This document shows, in pieces, positions 1 through 11,221 of a DNA stretch of 40,314 nt. The notes below the pieces were generated by a model. That model was not told the origin of the DNA, did no database searches, and saw nothing but the letters and a program-made list of their open reading frames with translations. Position numbers and translations under genes: made by a program. Source of the DNA: a virus (lineage: Duplodnaviria > Caudoviricetes). The first letter of the stretch is position 1. The number at the start of each line of letters is the position of its first letter. The stretch covers positions 1 through 40,314 of IMG/VR virus record IMGVR_UViG_3300025296_000044. One strand, given 5' to 3'.

Positions 1-365
1 AAAAAGAAGTATATCATGCTGTGTGGCCTAATATAAATGATGCACTTGATTTTAAATATATGCGTGATTTAGAAAAAGAAGTTAGAAATTTAAGACAAGA
101 ACTAAATAATCTTGTAGCAAATAAATATACTCAAAGACAATGGGACAGAACTGTAGGATATGGTAAAGTTCCTGATGAATACAATACTGAAATAGAAAAT
201 ATTGCTTTAATTTTAAGACAACGTATCTTTAAACTTCAGCATGAAAATAAGATACTAAGGAAGATGATACATAGTTTATCCAGTGATACAAAAGAACAGG
301 TGGATAAGTTTATTGCTGTGGCCGTTGCCGTTGAGAAAATGGAGAAGTATAATTCTAAAGACTAG
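1..365 (+). CDS. Hypothetical phage protein, possibly 5'-truncated
   Basis: ORF 21..365. The frame stays open back to the window edge. Coiled-coil-like sequence, no recognised family. Confidence 0.6.
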   Translation, partial: KEVYHAVWPNINDALDFKYMRDLEKEVRNLRQELNNLVANKYTQRQWDRTVGYGKVPDEYNTEIENIALILRQRIFKLQHENKILRKMIHSLSSDTKEQVDKFIAVAVAVEKMEKYNSKD

Positions 366-372
366 AAAACGA

Positions 373-401
373 TTGACAAAATGAACAGGAACATATATTA
401 T
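373..401 (+). promoter_or_regulatory. Sigma70-type promoter, probably giving a leaderless transcript
   Basis: TTGACA (373-378), 17 bp spacer, TATTAT (396-401). The expected +1 falls at about 408, the A of the next ATG. No SD is present. Confidence 0.7.
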
Positions 402-407
402 ATATAG

Positions 408-800
408 ATGGATGATTTACTAGACATACCTAAATTTCTTCGCAAGGGAAAGAAAAGGGGAAGGCCCAGAAAAATTAAAGAATCCCCTCCTGAAATTAAT
501 CTCTATGAAGAATGGGATAAAATTAAACAAAAGAAATATGGTACAAAATATAATATCTTATTGGATAATAAATTTAGAAGGATAGGTACAGGATTAAGAA
601 TTATTTATGTATCAGAAAAAAGAAAGTGGGTGCATGTGGTCAGTCATGCAGGTAATCCTTACACTACACAACCTATACGAGTAAGGCTCTTGAAAAGAAA
701 ATGGGAAGATACAAAAAAATCTCATGAGAAATATGAAAATAGATGTAAGAAATATTTTGAAGGATTAAAAGATGGCACAAAAAAAACTGGAAAAGTTTAG
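408..800 (+). CDS. Small basic early protein with an N-terminal FtsZ-tail-like peptide and an AT-hook-like motif
   Basis: Begins MDDLLDIPKFLRK followed by GKKRGRPRK. Confidence 0.7.
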   Translation: MDDLLDIPKFLRKGKKRGRPRKIKESPPEINLYEEWDKIKQKKYGTKYNILLDNKFRRIGTGLRIIYVSEKRKWVHVVSHAGNPYTTQPIRVRLLKRKWEDTKKSHEKYENRCKKYFEGLKDGTKKTGKV

Positions 801-933
801 AGAACATTATGTTACAACAGAAGAACTGTTGGAAAGGATGCTACTCGATGATAGGAATGGCATATGTAAGGATGATGGAGATGGTCAACAAGGACAAGAA
901 ACACACAAGCAAAAACCCCTATGCAAGAATTAA
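772..933 (+). CDS. Small hypothetical protein, 53 aa (not in the ORF track)
   Basis: Manual translation MAQKKLEKFREHY...KPLCKN*. AAGGA at 760-764 precedes the ATG. Confidence 0.5.
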   Translation: MAQKKLEKFREHYVTTEELLERMLLDDRNGICKDDGDGQQGQETHKQKPLCKN

Positions 934-1027
934 GGAATGGAAACTCTTTCGTAAGAGGATTATACAATCCAAGAAAAAGTATGATCGTAATAAATTTAAG
1001 ATTGACAAGAGAAAGGATTTGGTATAA
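881..1027 (+). CDS. Small basic protein, 48 aa, weakly ArfA-like
   Basis: In-frame ATG at 881 of ORF 809..1027, with AAGGA at 868-872. Contains KNPYARIKEWKLFRKRIIQSKKKYDR. Confidence 0.55.
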   Translation: MVNKDKKHTSKNPYARIKEWKLFRKRIIQSKKKYDRNKFKIDKRKDLV

Positions 1028-1028
1028 T
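1002..1028 (+). promoter_or_regulatory. Candidate sigma70 promoter with extended -10
   Basis: TTGACA (1002-1007) and TG-G-TATAAT (1020-1028). The spacer is only 15 bp, so it may rely on the extended -10. Confidence 0.5.
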
Positions 1029-1251
1029 GTCTGGTCATATGACTGTTGTTAATTTTGGTTTATCAAGTTGTGAGTATACACAATTATGGTTGAAAGTAAA
1101 GAACAAACAGGCCGATGAAGAATTTTTTAAACTTGTCAATAAACTTATGCATGATCATTCTAAAATATTAAAAGAAATAATCAACTATCCTAATATAAAG
1201 ATAGTCTGGGATGATACTAACTGGGATGAGATTCATGGAAAAGAAAAGTAA
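1027..1251 (+). CDS. Hypothetical protein
   Basis: ORF coupled to the previous stop (TAATG). Alternative start at 1039. Confidence 0.55.
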   Translation: MSGHMTVVNFGLSSCEYTQLWLKVKNKQADEEFFKLVNKLMHDHSKILKEIINYPNIKIVWDDTNWDEIHGKEK

Positions 1252-1390
1252 AAGAAATAGAAAAGAATGGAAATGGAACAGGACAATAAAAGATAAATAT
1301 AAAAAGAGAAAGAGAATTTATTATGCAGAAGATACTAAACGAAGCAGAGATAGTCAAAGAAAAGAAAGGCTCCTTCAAGGTTTGGAGTAA
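1235..1390 (+). CDS. Small Lys/Arg-rich hypothetical protein, 51 aa (not in the ORF track)
   Basis: Manual translation MEKKSKRNRKEWKWNRT...LLQGLE*. Fills the gap between neighbouring ORFs. Confidence 0.45.
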   Translation: MEKKSKRNRKEWKWNRTIKDKYKKRKRIYYAEDTKRSRDSQRKERLLQGLE

Positions 1391-1562
1391 GGTTCACCTG
1401 TCTCTTCTGGAAGAGTGGACTTCCAAAGACTGGAAGAAATATAATAAAAGTAAGGATAGTTATTTCTTACATCCTTATAGATGGACTATGATTGCTGCTG
1501 GAAAAACCAAAGAAGAAGCAACAAAAAATGCAAAGGATATTATTTCTCGATATAGAAACTGA
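1323..1562 (+). CDS. Hypothetical protein
   Basis: 79 aa ORF in the tightly packed early region. Confidence 0.55.
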   Translation: MQKILNEAEIVKEKKGSFKVWSKVHLSLLEEWTSKDWKKYNKSKDSYFLHPYRWTMIAAGKTKEEATKNAKDIISRYRN

Positions 1563-3255
1563 TGGTCTGGATGCCACAAAGATATTTGTTTGTGTATGCA
1601 AAGACAAAGATACAGGAAATGTAACATGCCATACTGAACCCAGAACATTCAACAAACTTATTGAAGGCTATAATATTCTGGTGGGTCATAATATTTTATC
1701 CTTTGATGCTCCCATACTAAACAGGTTATGGAATTCAAACATAGGTCTGTCAAAAATACAGGATACATATATCCTTTCATGTCTATTCAATCCTGACAGG
1801 GAAGGACGACACTCTCTGGCAGCATGGGGCAAGAGACTGGGGCTGGATAAGATTGACTATCATGACTTCTCATGTTTCTCTCCAGAGATGTTGGAGTATT
1901 GTGAGAATGATATTCATATCACACATAAAATTTATGATTTTTTAATGGGAACTGAGAAGAAAGATTTCTCTGATAAATCAATAGCTTTGGAGCATAAGAT
2001 AAGGTATGTTCTTAACAAGCAAGAGAGTAAAGGTTTCTATCTCAATACTGAAAAAGCACACAAGCTAATGATGGAAGTCCTGAACAGGGCAACAGAGATA
2101 GAAGATAGTGTATTGAGTAAGGTTCCTCTCAGAGCCAGATTGATCAAGGAAATAGTACCAAAGATCAAGAAGGATGGAACACGTTCCAATGTAGGGTTGA
2201 AGAATTATGATCATGCTAATATTGTTGGGCCTTTTTCTGCATTTGAATATGAGAAATTTAATCTTGCATCACCAAAGCAAATCATTCAGAGACTGAATCA
2301 ATATGGATGGAATCCCATTGAGTTTACACCAAAGGGATCACCAAAGATCAGTGAGAAAAATCTGGAAACAATATCCTCTTCTGCACCGGAGGAGATCAAG
2401 AGGCTGGCAGAATGGAAGATGCTGAAGACCAGAGCCAAGACGATTGAAAGCTGGCTGGATGTAGTGGACAAGAACAATCGAGTACATGGCAAGGTCATCA
2501 CAATGGGTGCTGTGACAGGACGTATGGTCCATGCAGACCCCAACATGGCAAACATCGTGGCAAACCATAAGCCATATGGTGAAGATTCACGGTCTTGCTG
2601 GACAGTACCTGATGACAAGCATGTTCTGGTAGGTATGGACGCCAAAGGACTGGAACTGAGGATGCTGGCACATTATATGAAGGACAATGAGTACATCCAT
2701 GAGGTTCTGGAGGGTGATCCACATACCTACAATCAGGAACTGGCAGGTCTACCCACTCGAAATGCAGCAAAGACTTTCATCTATGCATTCATATATGGGG
2801 CAGGTAATCAGAAGATAGGCTCCATCGTTAATGGATCGTCCCATGATGGGAAAAAACTGAGAGAAAAGTTTCTGTCCAGTCTTCCCAAGCTGGATAAGCT
2901 CATCAAGAGCGTTCAAAGACATTCAACCAGAGGTTACATCAGGGGTATAGATGGCAGGAGGATACTGATTAGACGTGCTCATGCTGCCCTGAATACCCTC
3001 TTGCAAGGCGGCGGGGCTATCTGCTGTAAGCAATGGTCTATCTTCCTTGATGATGAAATTAAAGATAGACAACTCAGGGCATATCTGGTAAACACTATTC
3101 ATGATGAGCAACAGTATGAAGTTCATGTTGATGATGCAGAAGAACTTGTCAGCATTACTGATCCTTGCATGACCAGAGTATCTGACTTTTTCCAGATGAA
3201 TATTCCACTCAATGCAGATGCAAAGATAGGGAGAACATGGCAGGAAACTCACTAG
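1528..3255 (+). CDS. polA: DNA polymerase family A, T7 gp5-like
   Basis: Exonuclease motifs FLDIETDG, GHNILSFD and YCEND. Polymerase motif A DAKGLELR, motif B RNAAKTFIYAFIYG, motif C IHDE. Likely start is the ATG at 1528. Confidence 0.97.
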   Translation: MQRILFLDIETDGLDATKIFVCVCKDKDTGNVTCHTEPRTFNKLIEGYNILVGHNILSFDAPILNRLWNSNIGLSKIQDTYILSCLFNPDREGRHSLAAWGKRLGLDKIDYHDFSCFSPEMLEYCENDIHITHKIYDFLMGTEKKDFSDKSIALEHKIRYVLNKQESKGFYLNTEKAHKLMMEVLNRATEIEDSVLSKVPLRARLIKEIVPKIKKDGTRSNVGLKNYDHANIVGPFSAFEYEKFNLASPKQIIQRLNQYGWNPIEFTPKGSPKISEKNLETISSSAPEEIKRLAEWKMLKTRAKTIESWLDVVDKNNRVHGKVITMGAVTGRMVHADPNMANIVANHKPYGEDSRSCWTVPDDKHVLVGMDAKGLELRMLAHYMKDNEYIHEVLEGDPHTYNQELAGLPTRNAAKTFIYAFIYGAGNQKIGSIVNGSSHDGKKLREKFLSSLPKLDKLIKSVQRHSTRGYIRGIDGRRILIRRAHAALNTLLQGGGAICCKQWSIFLDDEIKDRQLRAYLVNTIHDEQQYEVHVDDAEELVSITDPCMTRVSDFFQMNIPLNADAKIGRTWQETH

Positions 3256-3692
3256 GAAGAACTAAAAAGTTTAATAAACAACTATATGATAAATCAGATA
3301 AGACATCTAAAGATGCTATTGTTTCTTATTTAAAGAAAAAGAAACATCATATTACTAATATAGTAGAGAAATTTTCTTGTGATATAGAAAGTATATCAGA
3401 GGAGGGTATAGTTTGTTTTTCAGAAACTGAAATTAAATACTCATGGAAGGGAGAGTGGCCCTCCTCTTGGAAAGATGTAAGGATACCCTATCGCAAACAG
3501 AAACTTCTTGACAGGATAAAAGAGAATCTTACATTCTATGTTCTTAGAGATGACTGTAAAGAAGCTTGGATTATTTCTGATATTGCACTGGAGAAATATG
3601 CAACAGTAATCGAGGTGCCTAACAGATATGTACCAGATGGAGAAAAGTTTTTCTCTGTACCTGTTGATAAGATATATAAAATAAGTCTTTAA
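3237..3692 (+). CDS. Hypothetical protein, possible PD-(D/E)XK nuclease fold
   Basis: CDI...ETEIK pattern resembles a restriction-endonuclease-like active site. Overlaps the polymerase end. Confidence 0.5.
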   Translation: MAGNSLGRTKKFNKQLYDKSDKTSKDAIVSYLKKKKHHITNIVEKFSCDIESISEEGIVCFSETEIKYSWKGEWPSSWKDVRIPYRKQKLLDRIKENLTFYVLRDDCKEAWIISDIALEKYATVIEVPNRYVPDGEKFFSVPVDKIYKISL

Positions 3693-3696
3693 ACAA

Positions 3697-4368
3697 ATGC
3701 TTGATTATATTGAATGGCTCAGTACCATTGAAGAAGAACCAGAGCTTGATGGTGCAGGTAAGTTACTCGCTCCTGTATTTGCTGAACTATTATATGACAG
3801 GAAAGTTAAAACAATATATGAATGGTGTTGTGGTCCTGCATGGATAGGTTTATGGTTACTGGAACAGGGTATATGTCAAGAACTTGTAGTATCTGATATC
3901 AATAAGAAAGCCATAGATTGTGTCAGACGTACCATAAATAGACATAATTATCCTGTTCGTTCTTACCTGAGTGATAACCTTAAAGGTATACCTGAACATG
4001 AGAAGTTTGATATTATAGTTGCCAATCCTCCCAACTATGTTAATATACAAGAGGATCACCCAATGGGTTTTCTCAGATATGATCTTAGACCATCAGATAT
4101 TGACTGGAAAATTCATAGAGACTTCTATAATAATATAAGAAAACATATGCATAAAGAAAGTGATATGTATATATCAGAAGTTGAACCATACAAGAAAGAA
4201 GTATGGCTTATGGGTAAGCTTTATGATAAAAGAGAAACAGAACCTATTAAAGATTTTAAAGAAATGCTTTCAGCAAATGAATTAAATTTAAATAGTGTAG
4301 AAACATATACAATGAACCAAGAGATTGAGATGGCAATCCTAGATATTTCTCTTGACATAAGAATCTAA
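3697..4368 (+). CDS. Class I SAM-dependent methyltransferase, HemK/PrmC or MTS-like
   Basis: Motif I YEWCCGPAWIG, VVSDIN, and FDIIVANPPNY. Confidence 0.85.
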   Translation: MLDYIEWLSTIEEEPELDGAGKLLAPVFAELLYDRKVKTIYEWCCGPAWIGLWLLEQGICQELVVSDINKKAIDCVRRTINRHNYPVRSYLSDNLKGIPEHEKFDIIVANPPNYVNIQEDHPMGFLRYDLRPSDIDWKIHRDFYNNIRKHMHKESDMYISEVEPYKKEVWLMGKLYDKRETEPIKDFKEMLSANELNLNSVETYTMNQEIEMAILDISLDIRI

Positions 4369-4380
4369 GCGTGGTAAGGT
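4352..4380 (+). promoter_or_regulatory. Sigma70-type promoter upstream of the SSB gene
   Basis: TTGACA (4352-4357), 17 bp spacer containing TG at 4372-4373, TAAGGT (4375-4380). SD AAGGAG at about 4402. Confidence 0.6.
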
Positions 4381-4413
4381 GGTATATTATTAACCAACAT
4401 TAAGGAGATAAAT

Positions 4414-4830
4414 ATGATGGCTGCACAGAAAGAGACTGCAATTATTTCAGGCAAAGCTTATTGGACCAAGCTCAACCGTAAGGATGAGTATTCCGATAAG
4501 TACCAATTGGACGTAGGTGATCTTTCTGACAAGAGTAAGGAAGTCTTGAATTCTCATGGAGTTAAGTTGAAGAACAAGAATGATGATCGAGGGGAGTTCA
4601 TAACTGCCAGAACTCAATACCTCGTTCCAGTCATTGACTCCGATAAGAAGACTATTGATCGAGATACTCTTATTGGTAATGGTAGTAGCGTCAGAGTGAA
4701 GGTTGACTTCAATAAGAATCATCCTTTTGCTGAGAAGTATGGTACGTCAATGTATCTCAAGAAGGTACAGGTGACTGAGTTAGTTGAGTATGCAAAAGAT
4801 GAGTTTGACGACGACGACGACATGGTCTAG
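4414..4830 (+). CDS. Single-stranded DNA-binding protein, T7 gp2.5-like
   Basis: GKAYW, IGNGSSVRV and VQVTELVEY motifs, acidic tail EFDDDDDMV, strong SD, replication-module context. Confidence 0.8.
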   Translation: MMAAQKETAIISGKAYWTKLNRKDEYSDKYQLDVGDLSDKSKEVLNSHGVKLKNKNDDRGEFITARTQYLVPVIDSDKKTIDRDTLIGNGSSVRVKVDFNKNHPFAEKYGTSMYLKKVQVTELVEYAKDEFDDDDDMV

Positions 4831-4918
4831 TCATGATATCAGGGCTTGTGATGAGCAATATTAATTTCGGAAACGCTCGTATGATCAAGAAGCATGGCGG
4901 GCGAGGGAGCGGGCAGCT

Positions 4919-5758
4919 ATGCATATTTCTACATTAGTAAACGATATATATGATCGTATTGCATCCAACAAGAAGGTCTCCAGAGAAAATCTGGAGGCTT
5001 TCTTGGAGGGTGTTTCTGCTGTTATCATTCAACATCTGGAGGAGGAAAGGAATACACCCAGTGAAAAACGTATTAGAATGTCTTCAATCGGCAAGCCAGA
5101 CCGTAAAATCTGGATGGAACTTAACGGTCCAAAGGTGGAAAGAGCGTATCAACCATCTACTCTCATCAAGTTTCTCTATGGTTCGATCATTGAAGAACTG
5201 GTTATCTTCCTTACGAAAGAGGCTGGTCACTCAGTACAGGAACCGCAGAAACAGTGCGAGATATTGGGAATAAAGGGACATCTTGATTGTAAGATTGATG
5301 GAGAAGTGGTAGATATTAAATCTGCCAGTGATTTTGCTTTCAGAAAATTCAAGACCGGATCAATAGAGTATGATGATCCTTTTGGTTATATAGCACAGGT
5401 CAGTGCATATGCTGAAGCAGAGGGTAAAGATGTTGGATATCTTCTGGCAATGAATAAAGTTTCTGGAGAGATAGTATTACTTGAGCTTGATGACATGACA
5501 CTGATCAATGCCACAGAGCGTATTAAAGATGTCAAGAAGATAGCAAAGAGTTCAAGTATGCCAGACTTCTGTTACCTGCCAGAACCGGAAGGCAAGTCAG
5601 GAAACATGAAGATTGCCAGAGATTGTGTCTATTGTGATTATAAGTGGACTTGCTTCCCTGACATGAGAGTGTTCAGATATCAGGAAGGATTTAAATATTT
5701 AACAACGGTGGAGAAAGAACCTAAAGTTCCTGAAATAACAGATAGTATGAGAGGATAA
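4919..5758 (+). CDS. PD-(D/E)XK exonuclease, Cas4/RecB-like
   Basis: RMSSIG, GHLDCKIDGEVVDIKS, QVSAY and C-terminal C...CVYCDYKWTC. Confidence 0.85.
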   Translation: MHISTLVNDIYDRIASNKKVSRENLEAFLEGVSAVIIQHLEEERNTPSEKRIRMSSIGKPDRKIWMELNGPKVERAYQPSTLIKFLYGSIIEELVIFLTKEAGHSVQEPQKQCEILGIKGHLDCKIDGEVVDIKSASDFAFRKFKTGSIEYDDPFGYIAQVSAYAEAEGKDVGYLLAMNKVSGEIVLLELDDMTLINATERIKDVKKIAKSSSMPDFCYLPEPEGKSGNMKIARDCVYCDYKWTCFPDMRVFRYQEGFKYLTTVEKEPKVPEITDSMRG

Positions 5759-9093: not shown

Positions 9094-9312
9094 ATGGAGA
9101 ATAATACAATGAAGATAAGTGTAGAATTAATTAATGCTATCTTAAACTATCTTTCAAAGAAACCCTTCAATGAAGTGAATGGATTGGTGGGACAACTGAT
9201 GTTAGAAGTCAGGAAAGCACAAGAAGAAGATCAACAAGAGTTTTCTTTTCCTCCTGAAGAGAAATCTTCCAGCAATGAAAAAAAGGATACCAAGAAGAAT
9301 GCTTCCAACTGA
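9094..9312 (+). CDS. Hypothetical phage protein
   Basis: Contains ILNYLSKKPFNEV, which resembles a common small phage protein motif. Confidence 0.65.
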   Translation: MENNTMKISVELINAILNYLSKKPFNEVNGLVGQLMLEVRKAQEEDQQEFSFPPEEKSSSNEKKDTKKNASN

Positions 9313-11221
9313 TTACCAATCGTTCATACATCAATCCAGATATAGTCGTTGGCTGGAAGAGGAGGGAAGACGAGAGACATGGGAAGAAACTGTCACTCGC
9401 CTTCTCAACTTCTATAAAGTTTTTATTAAAGACAAACATGACTACTCCATGCCAAAGGAACTATTTACAGACTTGTATGTAGCAATGGTCACGCTGAAGA
9501 TCATGCCTTCCATGAGGGCCATGATGACTGCTGGCCCTGCACTGGAACGTAATCATATTGCTGCCTACAACTGCTCCTACCTGCCTGTGGACAGCCCCAG
9601 AGCTTTTGATGAGTGCCTCTACATCCTGATGCATGGAACTGGTGTAGGCTTCTCTGTGGAGAGACAGTACATCAATCAGCTTCCTCCAATACCTGATGTT
9701 GTTGAAGAGAGTGAGACAACAATCATCGTACAGGACAGCAAGGAGGGATGGTTCAAGGGCTTCAAGGAGCTTATCAACCTGCTCTATGCTGGTATGCTGC
9801 CCAGATGGGATATGTCCAAGCTACGCCCTGCTGGAGCTAAACTGAAGACCTTTGGTGGTAGGGCCAGTGGTCCTGACCCTCTGGATGATCTTTTCAGTTT
9901 CACCTGTAGTATGTTCAAGAAGGCTGCTGGACGTAGGCTGTCCAGTATCGAATGCCATGATCTAATGTGCAAGGTGGCTGATGTAGTGGTGGTGGGAGGA
10001 GTTAGAAGGTCTGCCCTGATCAGTCTGTCCAATCTATCTGATGACCGTATGAGACATGCCAAGTCTGGATCATGGTGGGAGACAGAACCTCATCGTGCTC
10101 TGGCAAATAACAGTGTCTGTTACACCGATGGATCAGCAGACATGGGATCATTCATGAGAGAATGGACAGCTCTCTATGAGAGCAAGTCTGGTGAACGTGG
10201 TATCTTCAATCGTCAGGCTGCACAGCAACAGGCAGCTAAGTATGGCCGTAGAGATTCCTCCATTGACTATGGAACCAACCCCTGTTCTGAAATTATTCTA
10301 AGACCGAAGCAGTTCTGTAATCTCTCTGAAGTTGTGATAAGAGCAGATGATACATCAGAAACTCTACAGAAGAAGGTGGAACTTGCCACCATACTGGGAA
10401 CCATACAGTCCTGCTTCACTGACTTCAAAGGTCTTAGCAGACAATGGATGAGGAATACAGAAGAAGAGAGACTTCTGGGTGTATCCCTGACAGGTATTCT
10501 TGATAGCAAGATGATGTCAAATGTGGGAAAAGAAAATATTACTTCTCTGTTGAGTAACCTTCGATTGACTGCTGTGTCCACCAATAGAAAATGGTCCAAG
10601 TATCTGGGCATTGAACCTTCTGCTGCCATTACCTGTGTTAAGCCTTCCGGTACAGTCAGTCAACTTGTGGATGCTGCCAGTGGTATTCACCCTCGACATT
10701 CCGATTATTATATTCGTACTGTCAGGGCTGACAAGAAAGACCCCCTGACAAAGTTCATGACAGAGAAAGGGTTTCCAGTTGAGGATGAACTCTTGAAGCC
10801 ACAGTCCATGTCAGTGTTTAGTTTCCCAGTGAAGGCACCCAGAGGAGCCTTGACAAGAGATAGTATATCTGCCATTGATCATCTCAAGATATGGCAGGTA
10901 TACTCAAATCACTGGTGCGAACATAAGCCTTCCATTACTGTTTCTGTACAGGAGAATGAATGGATGGAGGTTGGTTCATATGTTTATAAAAACTTTGATG
11001 CAATGTCAGGTATCAGTTTTCTCCCCATGAGTGAACATACCTATAAGCAAGCACCCTATCAGGATACCACCAGAGAGGACTATGAAGCTCTTCTGAAGAA
11101 GATGCCAAAGGATGTGGACTGGCAAGTCCTGTCTGAGTATGAAGAAGAAGATAATACTATGGGAAGTCAAACATACACCTGCTCTGGAGATGTATGTGAG
11201 GTGGTGGATATTGTACAATGA
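9299..11221 (+). CDS. nrdJ: Class II adenosylcobalamin-dependent ribonucleotide reductase
   Basis: MPSMRA, YNCSY, GGVRRSA, TNPCSEI, CVKPSGT, EHKPS and C-terminal CSGDVC. No beta subunit nearby. Likely start is the ATG at 9299. Confidence 0.93.
   Translation: MLPTDYQSFIHQSRYSRWLEEEGRRETWEETVTRLLNFYKVFIKDKHDYSMPKELFTDLYVAMVTLKIMPSMRAMMTAGPALERNHIAAYNCSYLPVDSPRAFDECLYILMHGTGVGFSVERQYINQLPPIPDVVEESETTIIVQDSKEGWFKGFKELINLLYAGMLPRWDMSKLRPAGAKLKTFGGRASGPDPLDDLFSFTCSMFKKAAGRRLSSIECHDLMCKVADVVVVGGVRRSALISLSNLSDDRMRHAKSGSWWETEPHRALANNSVCYTDGSADMGSFMREWTALYESKSGERGIFNRQAAQQQAAKYGRRDSSIDYGTNPCSEIILRPKQFCNLSEVVIRADDTSETLQKKVELATILGTIQSCFTDFKGLSRQWMRNTEEERLLGVSLTGILDSKMMSNVGKENITSLLSNLRLTAVSTNRKWSKYLGIEPSAAITCVKPSGTVSQLVDAASGIHPRHSDYYIRTVRADKKDPLTKFMTEKGFPVEDELLKPQSMSVFSFPVKAPRGALTRDSISAIDHLKIWQVYSNHWCEHKPSITVSVQENEWMEVGSYVYKNFDAMSGISFLPMSEHTYKQAPYQDTTREDYEALLKKMPKDVDWQVLSEYEEEDNTMGSQTYTCSGDVCEVVDIVQ

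Follow-up and report, generated by a model that had tools for sequence, protein, structure and literature searches.

Why would a phage begin a small basic protein with what reads as the C-terminal peptide of FtsZ? The question is raised by an open reading frame at 408..800 on the plus strand of a virus record (77% complete) that we call the window, meaning the whole stretch of 40,314 nucleotides analysed here. Its product of 130 residues (pI 10.2, 37 of them Lys or Arg) belongs to an unannotated family of marine phage proteins, and its gene is one of several small ones clustered ahead of the DNA polymerase gene; the N-terminus, translated from 408-473, is MDDLLDIPKFLRKGKKRGRPRK. FtsA, ZipA, MinC, SlmA and ClpX all dock on the FtsZ tail, as PMC7999717 describes it, and in Caulobacter it binds FtsA and FzlC according to bioRxiv 632075. 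The original prediction for this gene, made from the letters of the DNA, was that the peptide acts as a decoy for such partners. We found no published case of an FtsZ-tail mimic in a phage or mobile element, in a mostly open-access literature; the available portions of PMC5512222 and PMC12704722 describe none, and the family that carries the peptide is new.

The gene, its start and its phage

Directly upstream of the gene lies a sigma-70-type promoter-like site, TTGACA-17-TATTAT (373..401, plus strand), which agrees with the consensus at 11 of 12 positions and bears out the near-consensus promoter that had been proposed there. It is the top-scoring of 20 promoter-like sites within positions 1-5000, a number at chance level (the shuffle mean is 18.7), so that only the score and the position of this site stand out. 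The site is also present in the near-identical phage of locus L001, and 7 of 39 distinct upstream regions of homologues hold a promoter-like site of at least 10/12. The -10 hexamer is 6 nt from the ATG and no Shine-Dalgarno sequence was found before that ATG, which suggests that the predicted start site falls on the ATG itself and that the mRNA is leaderless; among the homologues, a Shine-Dalgarno word precedes the ATG upstream of the motif in 25 of the 39 distinct upstream regions. An in-frame TAG immediately 5' of the ATG (405..407, plus strand) fixes the N-terminus. Further on in this frame, no start codon occurs before the TTG of codon 52, so that a product with the whole core domain also has the FtsZ-tail peptide. 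Promoter and gene position together point to early expression. On the reverse strand of L001, the translation of positions 2520-2600, upstream of the window's first open reading frame, resembles an antisense read of a tRNA gene.

The polymerase, of family A, is by context the first gene of the replication module (1492..3255, plus strand), and the window also encodes a primase-helicase, a Gp2.5-like SSB and a B12-type reductase. The isolates closest in polymerase are the Pelagibacter phages HTVC115P, 104P and 103P (42-43%), while the capsid reaches 62% to HTVC033P and 40% to HMO-2011, and the reductase 63% to roseobacter phages. Judged from these isolates, the host is likely a marine alphaproteobacterium. 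The reductase (9275-11221) is a B12-dependent class II ribonucleotide reductase. Its presence in a phage with a polymerase and capsid nearest to those of SAR11 phages is a hint that the host uses B12. Between polymerase and SSB there is a small SAM-dependent methyltransferase (3697-4368; Pfam MTS, E 7e-11), present in L082 and L091 and missing from several close relatives. A match in a Legionellales MAG was rejected as evidence on the host: the sole locus from the genome scan, L174 (2159 bp), is probably misbinned, being near-identical to the window phage with 31% GC, against 43% GC in the ftsZ region of that MAG.

In close relatives the family gene keeps its place with the small genes ahead of the polymerase; in others it lies near the primase-helicase. 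We found the family in no cultured phage, and no FtsZ-tail mimic in the scanned parts of six cultured phages. Coliphage N4 is cited as targeting both FtsZ and FtsA, by way of an unpublished reference (PMC4496689, ref 74); bases 1-40,000 of N4 hold no tail-like peptide above 9.2 bits.

A copy of the FtsZ tail ahead of a basic core domain

The peptide spans residues 2-13 (DDLLDIPKFLRK; 411..446, plus strand) and is identified by profile, PDB search and conservation. Within it, LDIPKFLRK agrees with the E. coli FtsZ tail (taken from Table 1 of PMC8138137) at 8 of 9 residues, which reproduces the count first given for it, and the FtsZ tails of L331 and L333, of alphaproteobacterial type, are closer than that of E. 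coli, with 10 of 12 residues identical. We built a profile from 28 distinct 11-mers of FtsZ tails (which themselves score 18.5-37.1 bits), drawing ftsZ loci from the phylum around genome G001 and from the class around G153, which we infer from its long linkers and tail type to be the Alphaproteobacteria. On this profile the phage peptide scores 24.8 bits. The second-best 11-mer in the window, where 18,209 were scored, reaches 8.8 bits, and the maximum over 251,062 background 11-mers from non-family open reading frames of related phage loci is 12.4 bits; if letters are taken as independent, the probability of the peptide's score is 3.6e-9 per position. Ten of the 25 complete FtsZ tails in the G153 class carry the pattern DLL[DEQ]IPAFLRR. 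Searched against 177,635 PDB sequences, the N-terminal 22-mer gave one match at E<=10, and this was an FtsZ tail (2vam_A, 366-382, E 0.83).

The phage peptide thus has in common with the conserved C-terminal peptide of FtsZ (CCTP or CTC) the pattern D-x-L-x-I-P-x-F-L-R-[RK] and a place at the end of a protein, about 50 residues from the folded domain. However, the phage copy is N-terminal, with no free carboxylate, stands on a protein of 130 residues without a tubulin domain and is followed by an AT-hook-like basic run. As far as sequence can tell, the N-terminal position and the missing tubulin domain mark it as a mimic and not as an FtsZ. The hydrophobic core L-x-I-P-x-F-L is complete in the window (L5, I7, P8, F10, L11), and Asp6 and Arg12 are kept. 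The family, unlike FtsZ, relaxes the Asp and the first Arg: in a set of 56 family proteins with the motif, D/E occupies the Asp position in 30% (80% in 41 FtsZ tails) and T in 38%, and the Arg position holds R in 55% (95% in the FtsZ tails), K in 18% and I in 12%. The family also prefers D/E where FtsZ has A/T/S. Column entropies of family and FtsZ correlate with rho 0.64, a figure that is partly circular and to which we give no weight.

Behind the peptide, still on the plus strand, residues 14-25 (447..482) form an AT-hook-like basic segment. The AT-hook core noted in the original prediction is there in its letters, RGRP with basic flanks at residues 17-20, as in PF02178, but the Pfam AT_hook match (15.5 bits, E 0.015) falls below the gathering cut-off of 17.4 and the segment is limited to the main subfamily, with [RK]GRP in 36 of 48 long-form homologues and an AT_hook match at E<=0.05 in 15 of 79 family members. 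A variable linker with a predicted helix follows at residues 26-45 (483..542, plus strand; family comparison and model), and across the family the motif lies 46-57 residues from the core. The conserved core domain (543..788, plus strand), with the signature PRIGSGxR...EGRKW and rich in Lys, Arg and aromatic residues, is modelled by AlphaFold2 as four strands and a long helix at a mean pLDDT of 89-92; residues 1-20 are modelled with moderate confidence (76-81) as a short helix.

What kind of domain is this core? No Pfam or PHROG family was found above cut-off for the protein or for the 79 family members, a PDB profile search with family alignment A2 gave no match, and Foldseek searches of the whole model and of the core against the PDB gave zero matches at E<=0.001. 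In a fold search with the core, rows for COMM, FeoA/SH3-like, PUR, PC4, PipX and Whirly proteins tied for best at Z 4.2-4.3, among rows that ran from Z 3 to 4.3 and included ribosomal proteins; no fold family is assignable since these weak rows tie. The rows to PC4, PUR, Whirly, FeoA and PipX amount to a weak likeness to small nucleic-acid-binding folds of the PC4/PUR/Whirly or SH3/KOW-like kind. The single significant fold match in BFVD is an unnamed viral protein of 102 residues, and the ESM Atlas gave no usable match for the window protein and only unnamed clusters below 0.8 for the family member P0025. Fused family forms of 239-2000 aa were sought and none was found, which is weak evidence. 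The charge of the protein and its sub-threshold AT-hook-like run suggest that it may bind nucleic acid.

Conservation of the arm and its recurrence on other proteins

Homologue searches yielded 7 of 17 candidates, 21 representatives and 73 of 533 candidates. The motif stands within the first 45 residues in 53 of 81 homologous proteins, a count that omits P0001, P0007, P0015 and P0022 (self, truncations or false match) and in which many of the motif-less rows are short or cut gene calls. P0022, a protein of 1290 aa with AT-hook repeats, was dropped as a false match. A cleaner test of conservation starts from DNA loci, with 78 distinct open reading frames assigned to the family by the core alone, 48 of them long forms, with at least 50 residues from the first ATG to the core, and 30 short. 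[IL]PxFL is found at the N-terminus in 46 of the 48 long forms; of the two exceptions one has a degenerate copy and the other an unrelated arm. The motif is absent from 29 of the 30 short forms, and the single carrier is cut at a contig edge, so the core evidently works without the arm. Conservation extends down to about 30% identity: P0021, P0027, P0078 and P0080, at 26-32% identity and with unrelated linkers, have near-exact FtsZ tails. At the fixed positions of the motif all four Pro codons and all six Leu codons are used (39 DNA versions), so that selection acts on the peptide. On a tree of the core domain (53 rows), presence and absence of the arm require 11 changes (bootstrap 10-12), of which well-supported branches force at least 3, in a tree with few columns and many open forks; the arm thus appears, from this tree, to be a module that is gained or lost. 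The core alone occurs as proteins of 66-90 aa in varied marine phage contigs, one of them of 135 kb (L117, L128, L141, L142, L166, P0024, P0025 and P0082-P0085).

Is the peptide confined to this family? Two exact-pattern scans of IMG/VR returned 35 and 38 loci, with no ftsZ among them. After implausible frames were dropped, 31 loci were kept per scan, forming 14 and 13 protein clusters (a few may be common to both scans), one of which is the present family. The motif lies within 15 residues of a protein end in 11 of the 14 and 12 of the 13 clusters. A reversed-pattern control gave 5 loci in 2 clusters, none with the exact motif. An earlier, looser DNA pattern (F/S/N allowed) had given 40 loci, mostly chance or off-frame, which are excluded from these counts. 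Many of the 31 scanned carriers are unnamed and basic, and the named ones, mostly DNA-acting, include MT-A70 and N6/N4 methyltransferases, an ERF annealing protein, a helicase, a DUF1376 primosomal protein and phrog_11903. The last is a phage family of 308-316 aa and unknown function that starts with DLL[DE]IPxFLR (L268, L276, L279, L287, L293, L294, L296). In the MT-A70 and N6/N4 methyltransferases a low-complexity linker precedes the motif, which stands at the C-terminus or close to it (L227, L234, L236, L244, L248, L256, L264, L237, L229).

Cellular proteins give a simpler picture. Of 41 genomes of the G153 class, 30 contain the pattern and 0 the reversed control; 29 of these 30 have a single copy, and that copy is in ftsZ in all 28 that were checked (G238 left out). 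The exception, G207, has five further copies, all in one protein family that matches ParB_N weakly (E 5e-5, below cut-off). Since the motif is confined in these 41 genomes to ftsZ and one ParB-like family, it is not a common cellular tag. In the ParB-like copies (L367, L370-L373), which share one chromosome, a long acidic linker leads to a C-terminal LEIPAFLRRG or close variant.

A separate observation concerns a group of phages that have the short, armless form of the family. In these a different early protein, which gave no Pfam or PHROG family, has an acidic linker and then DPLEIPEAFRR at its end, a weaker C-terminal look-alike with an FtsZ-like linker architecture (L158:2310-3344, L160:399-1040, L164:2094-2663, L168:465-1277). 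This peptide is the top-scoring background 11-mer, at 12.4 bits.

The N-terminal FtsZ-tail mimic first proposed for the window comes through the two sequence checks named with it, since the peptide is conserved in homologues and translation cannot begin between it and codon 52. It is upheld as well by its profile score, its modularity and its presence on unrelated phage proteins, and the family is part of a wider convergent pattern of FtsZ-tail copies.

Possible roles of the arm

We think it probable that the arm binds a host protein that reads the FtsZ tail. Which one would it be? ZipA and SlmA are gammaproteobacterial, and since the host is likely an alphaproteobacterium, FtsA or FzlC are the likelier partners; of the partners listed originally, FtsA (or FzlC) is thus plausible, and ZipA and SlmA less so. 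In the FtsA complex the tail contributes salt bridges from its Asp, its Arg and its terminal carboxylate, whereas the contacts of ZipA and SepF with the tail are hydrophobic, as PMC3418248 and PMC5256927 describe them. Against FtsA stands the fact that the family relaxes both salt-bridge residues and that an N-terminal copy lacks the terminal carboxylate; the residue pattern of the family would fit a hydrophobic groove better than the FtsA salt bridges.

How could such an arm act in infection? In the mechanism we propose, it would dock on the FtsZ anchors of the host, in the groove that binds the tail (FtsA in the first place and an FzlC-type protein in the second), the AT-hook-like segment and the core are predicted to hold many copies of the protein on DNA, and this DNA-borne array would compete with FtsZ filaments for the anchors and delay host division during infection. 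FtsZ itself is said (Du et al. 2015) to gain avidity by polymerising. A single tail peptide, as reported in PMC10769210, binds ZipA weakly (20-35 uM), and for both reasons a decoy would need a scaffold, here the predicted DNA-binding body: a lone tail copy would be a weak competitor, and a DNA-bound array would not. The profile score (24.8 against 12.4 bits), the conservation in 46 of 48 long forms, the modular arm and the recurrence at protein termini likely speak for a decoy, and we hold the chances about even that the whole chain is right, from a DNA-borne decoy for FtsA-type tail readers to a delay of division.

Against the decoy speak the short forms, in which the core does without the arm, the lack of the family in cultured phages and of mimics in the scanned parts of six of them, and such carriers as methyltransferases and helicases, which one would hardly expect of an inhibitor pure and simple. 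The arm might instead be an address tag, docking on FtsA or another anchor so that phage DNA or proteins are brought to the membrane or to midcell while division stays largely intact. The peptide does occur on enzymes for which location would count for more than a target, namely methyltransferases, ERF and a helicase, and also on a ParB-like family; its spacing from the core, kept at 46-57 residues, is tether-like. We nevertheless regard this as unlikely, for PMC10769210 reports that fragments 354-383 of FtsZ from E. coli have an inhibitory effect in vivo, and a strong promoter before a small non-enzymatic gene would suit a titrating decoy. A portable tag at either end of unrelated proteins could also be explained by a protease handle, with the arm bound by ClpX(P) or by a tail-reading adaptor and serving as a degradation tag, a shielding decoy or a recruiter; in E. 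coli, ClpXP does recognise the tail, as PMC8138137 and PMC5256927 relate. Yet the Arg that matters for ClpXP (R379) is among the positions that the family relaxes, and what the family fixes are the hydrophobic residues, with the motif always N-terminal, all of which makes a handle decidedly unlikely.

The arm might also resemble the FtsZ tail without imitating it, as a short amphipathic stretch kept for folding, for oligomerisation or to bind a phage protein. A resemblance of this kind would accord with the AlphaFold model of residues 1-20 and with the family consensus, which has drifted from that of FtsZ to T in place of D, to D/E in place of A and to a variable residue in place of R. We judge it very unlikely: the most distant members keep exact FtsZ-type copies, the motif recurs at the termini of many unrelated proteins whereas the reversed control is nearly empty, and it is nearly absent from cellular proteins other than FtsZ. 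Finally, we give very little credence to FtsZ itself as the target, where the arm would be a trans-acting copy of an auto-inhibitory contact proposed for the tail near the GTPase site. AlphaFold fragment scans in PMC10769210 place tail fragments on the FtsZ GTPase interface, and the phage inhibitors described in PMC11897509 do hit FtsZ; but the auto-inhibitory mode is itself a prediction, and the solved complexes of the tail are with partners.

A DNA-borne decoy, the reading that we prefer, would differ from the phage inhibitors of division described so far. Lambda Kil, T7 Gp0.4, T5 Hdi and P1 Icd are likewise small phage proteins, and the purpose proposed here is alike. However, these bind FtsZ and block formation of the Z-ring, with helix-turn-helix or bow-tie folds (PMC11897509), whereas the present protein copies the ligand that FtsZ itself presents and has a core of four strands and a helix; neither it nor the 79 family members gave a Pfam or PHROG match to Kil, Gp0.4, Hdi or Icd. 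SlmA offers another comparison: it couples DNA binding to an interaction with the FtsZ tail and so stops Z-rings over DNA, in the account of PMC7999717. SlmA binds the tail, whereas the phage protein displays it and showed no likeness to SlmA in the sequence and fold searches.

More speculatively, and with less confidence than we attach to the decoy itself, phages and integrative elements of the Alphaproteobacteria may on repeated occasions have attached the FtsZ tail to DNA-binding proteins, to serve there as a docking tag that is portable. In the present family, DNA coated with the protein would then act as a false FtsZ filament, multivalent and able to capture FtsA, and as a checkpoint made by the phage that stops the septum during phage replication. 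If true, such a false filament on DNA would be nucleoid occlusion in reverse. While the phage inhibitors cited above bind FtsZ, a decoy that copies its docking peptide would attack a conserved hub from the opposite direction; the tail-binding groove is one that the host could not easily alter without breaking its own division. The natural variants of the family (T for D, D/E for A, display at the N-terminus) may tell which partner reads which residue and whether the carboxylate is needed, with the core domain, which occurs both with and without the arm, as a built-in control. As a short, searchable motif, the peptide may provide a lead to the function of many phage genes that are at present unannotated.
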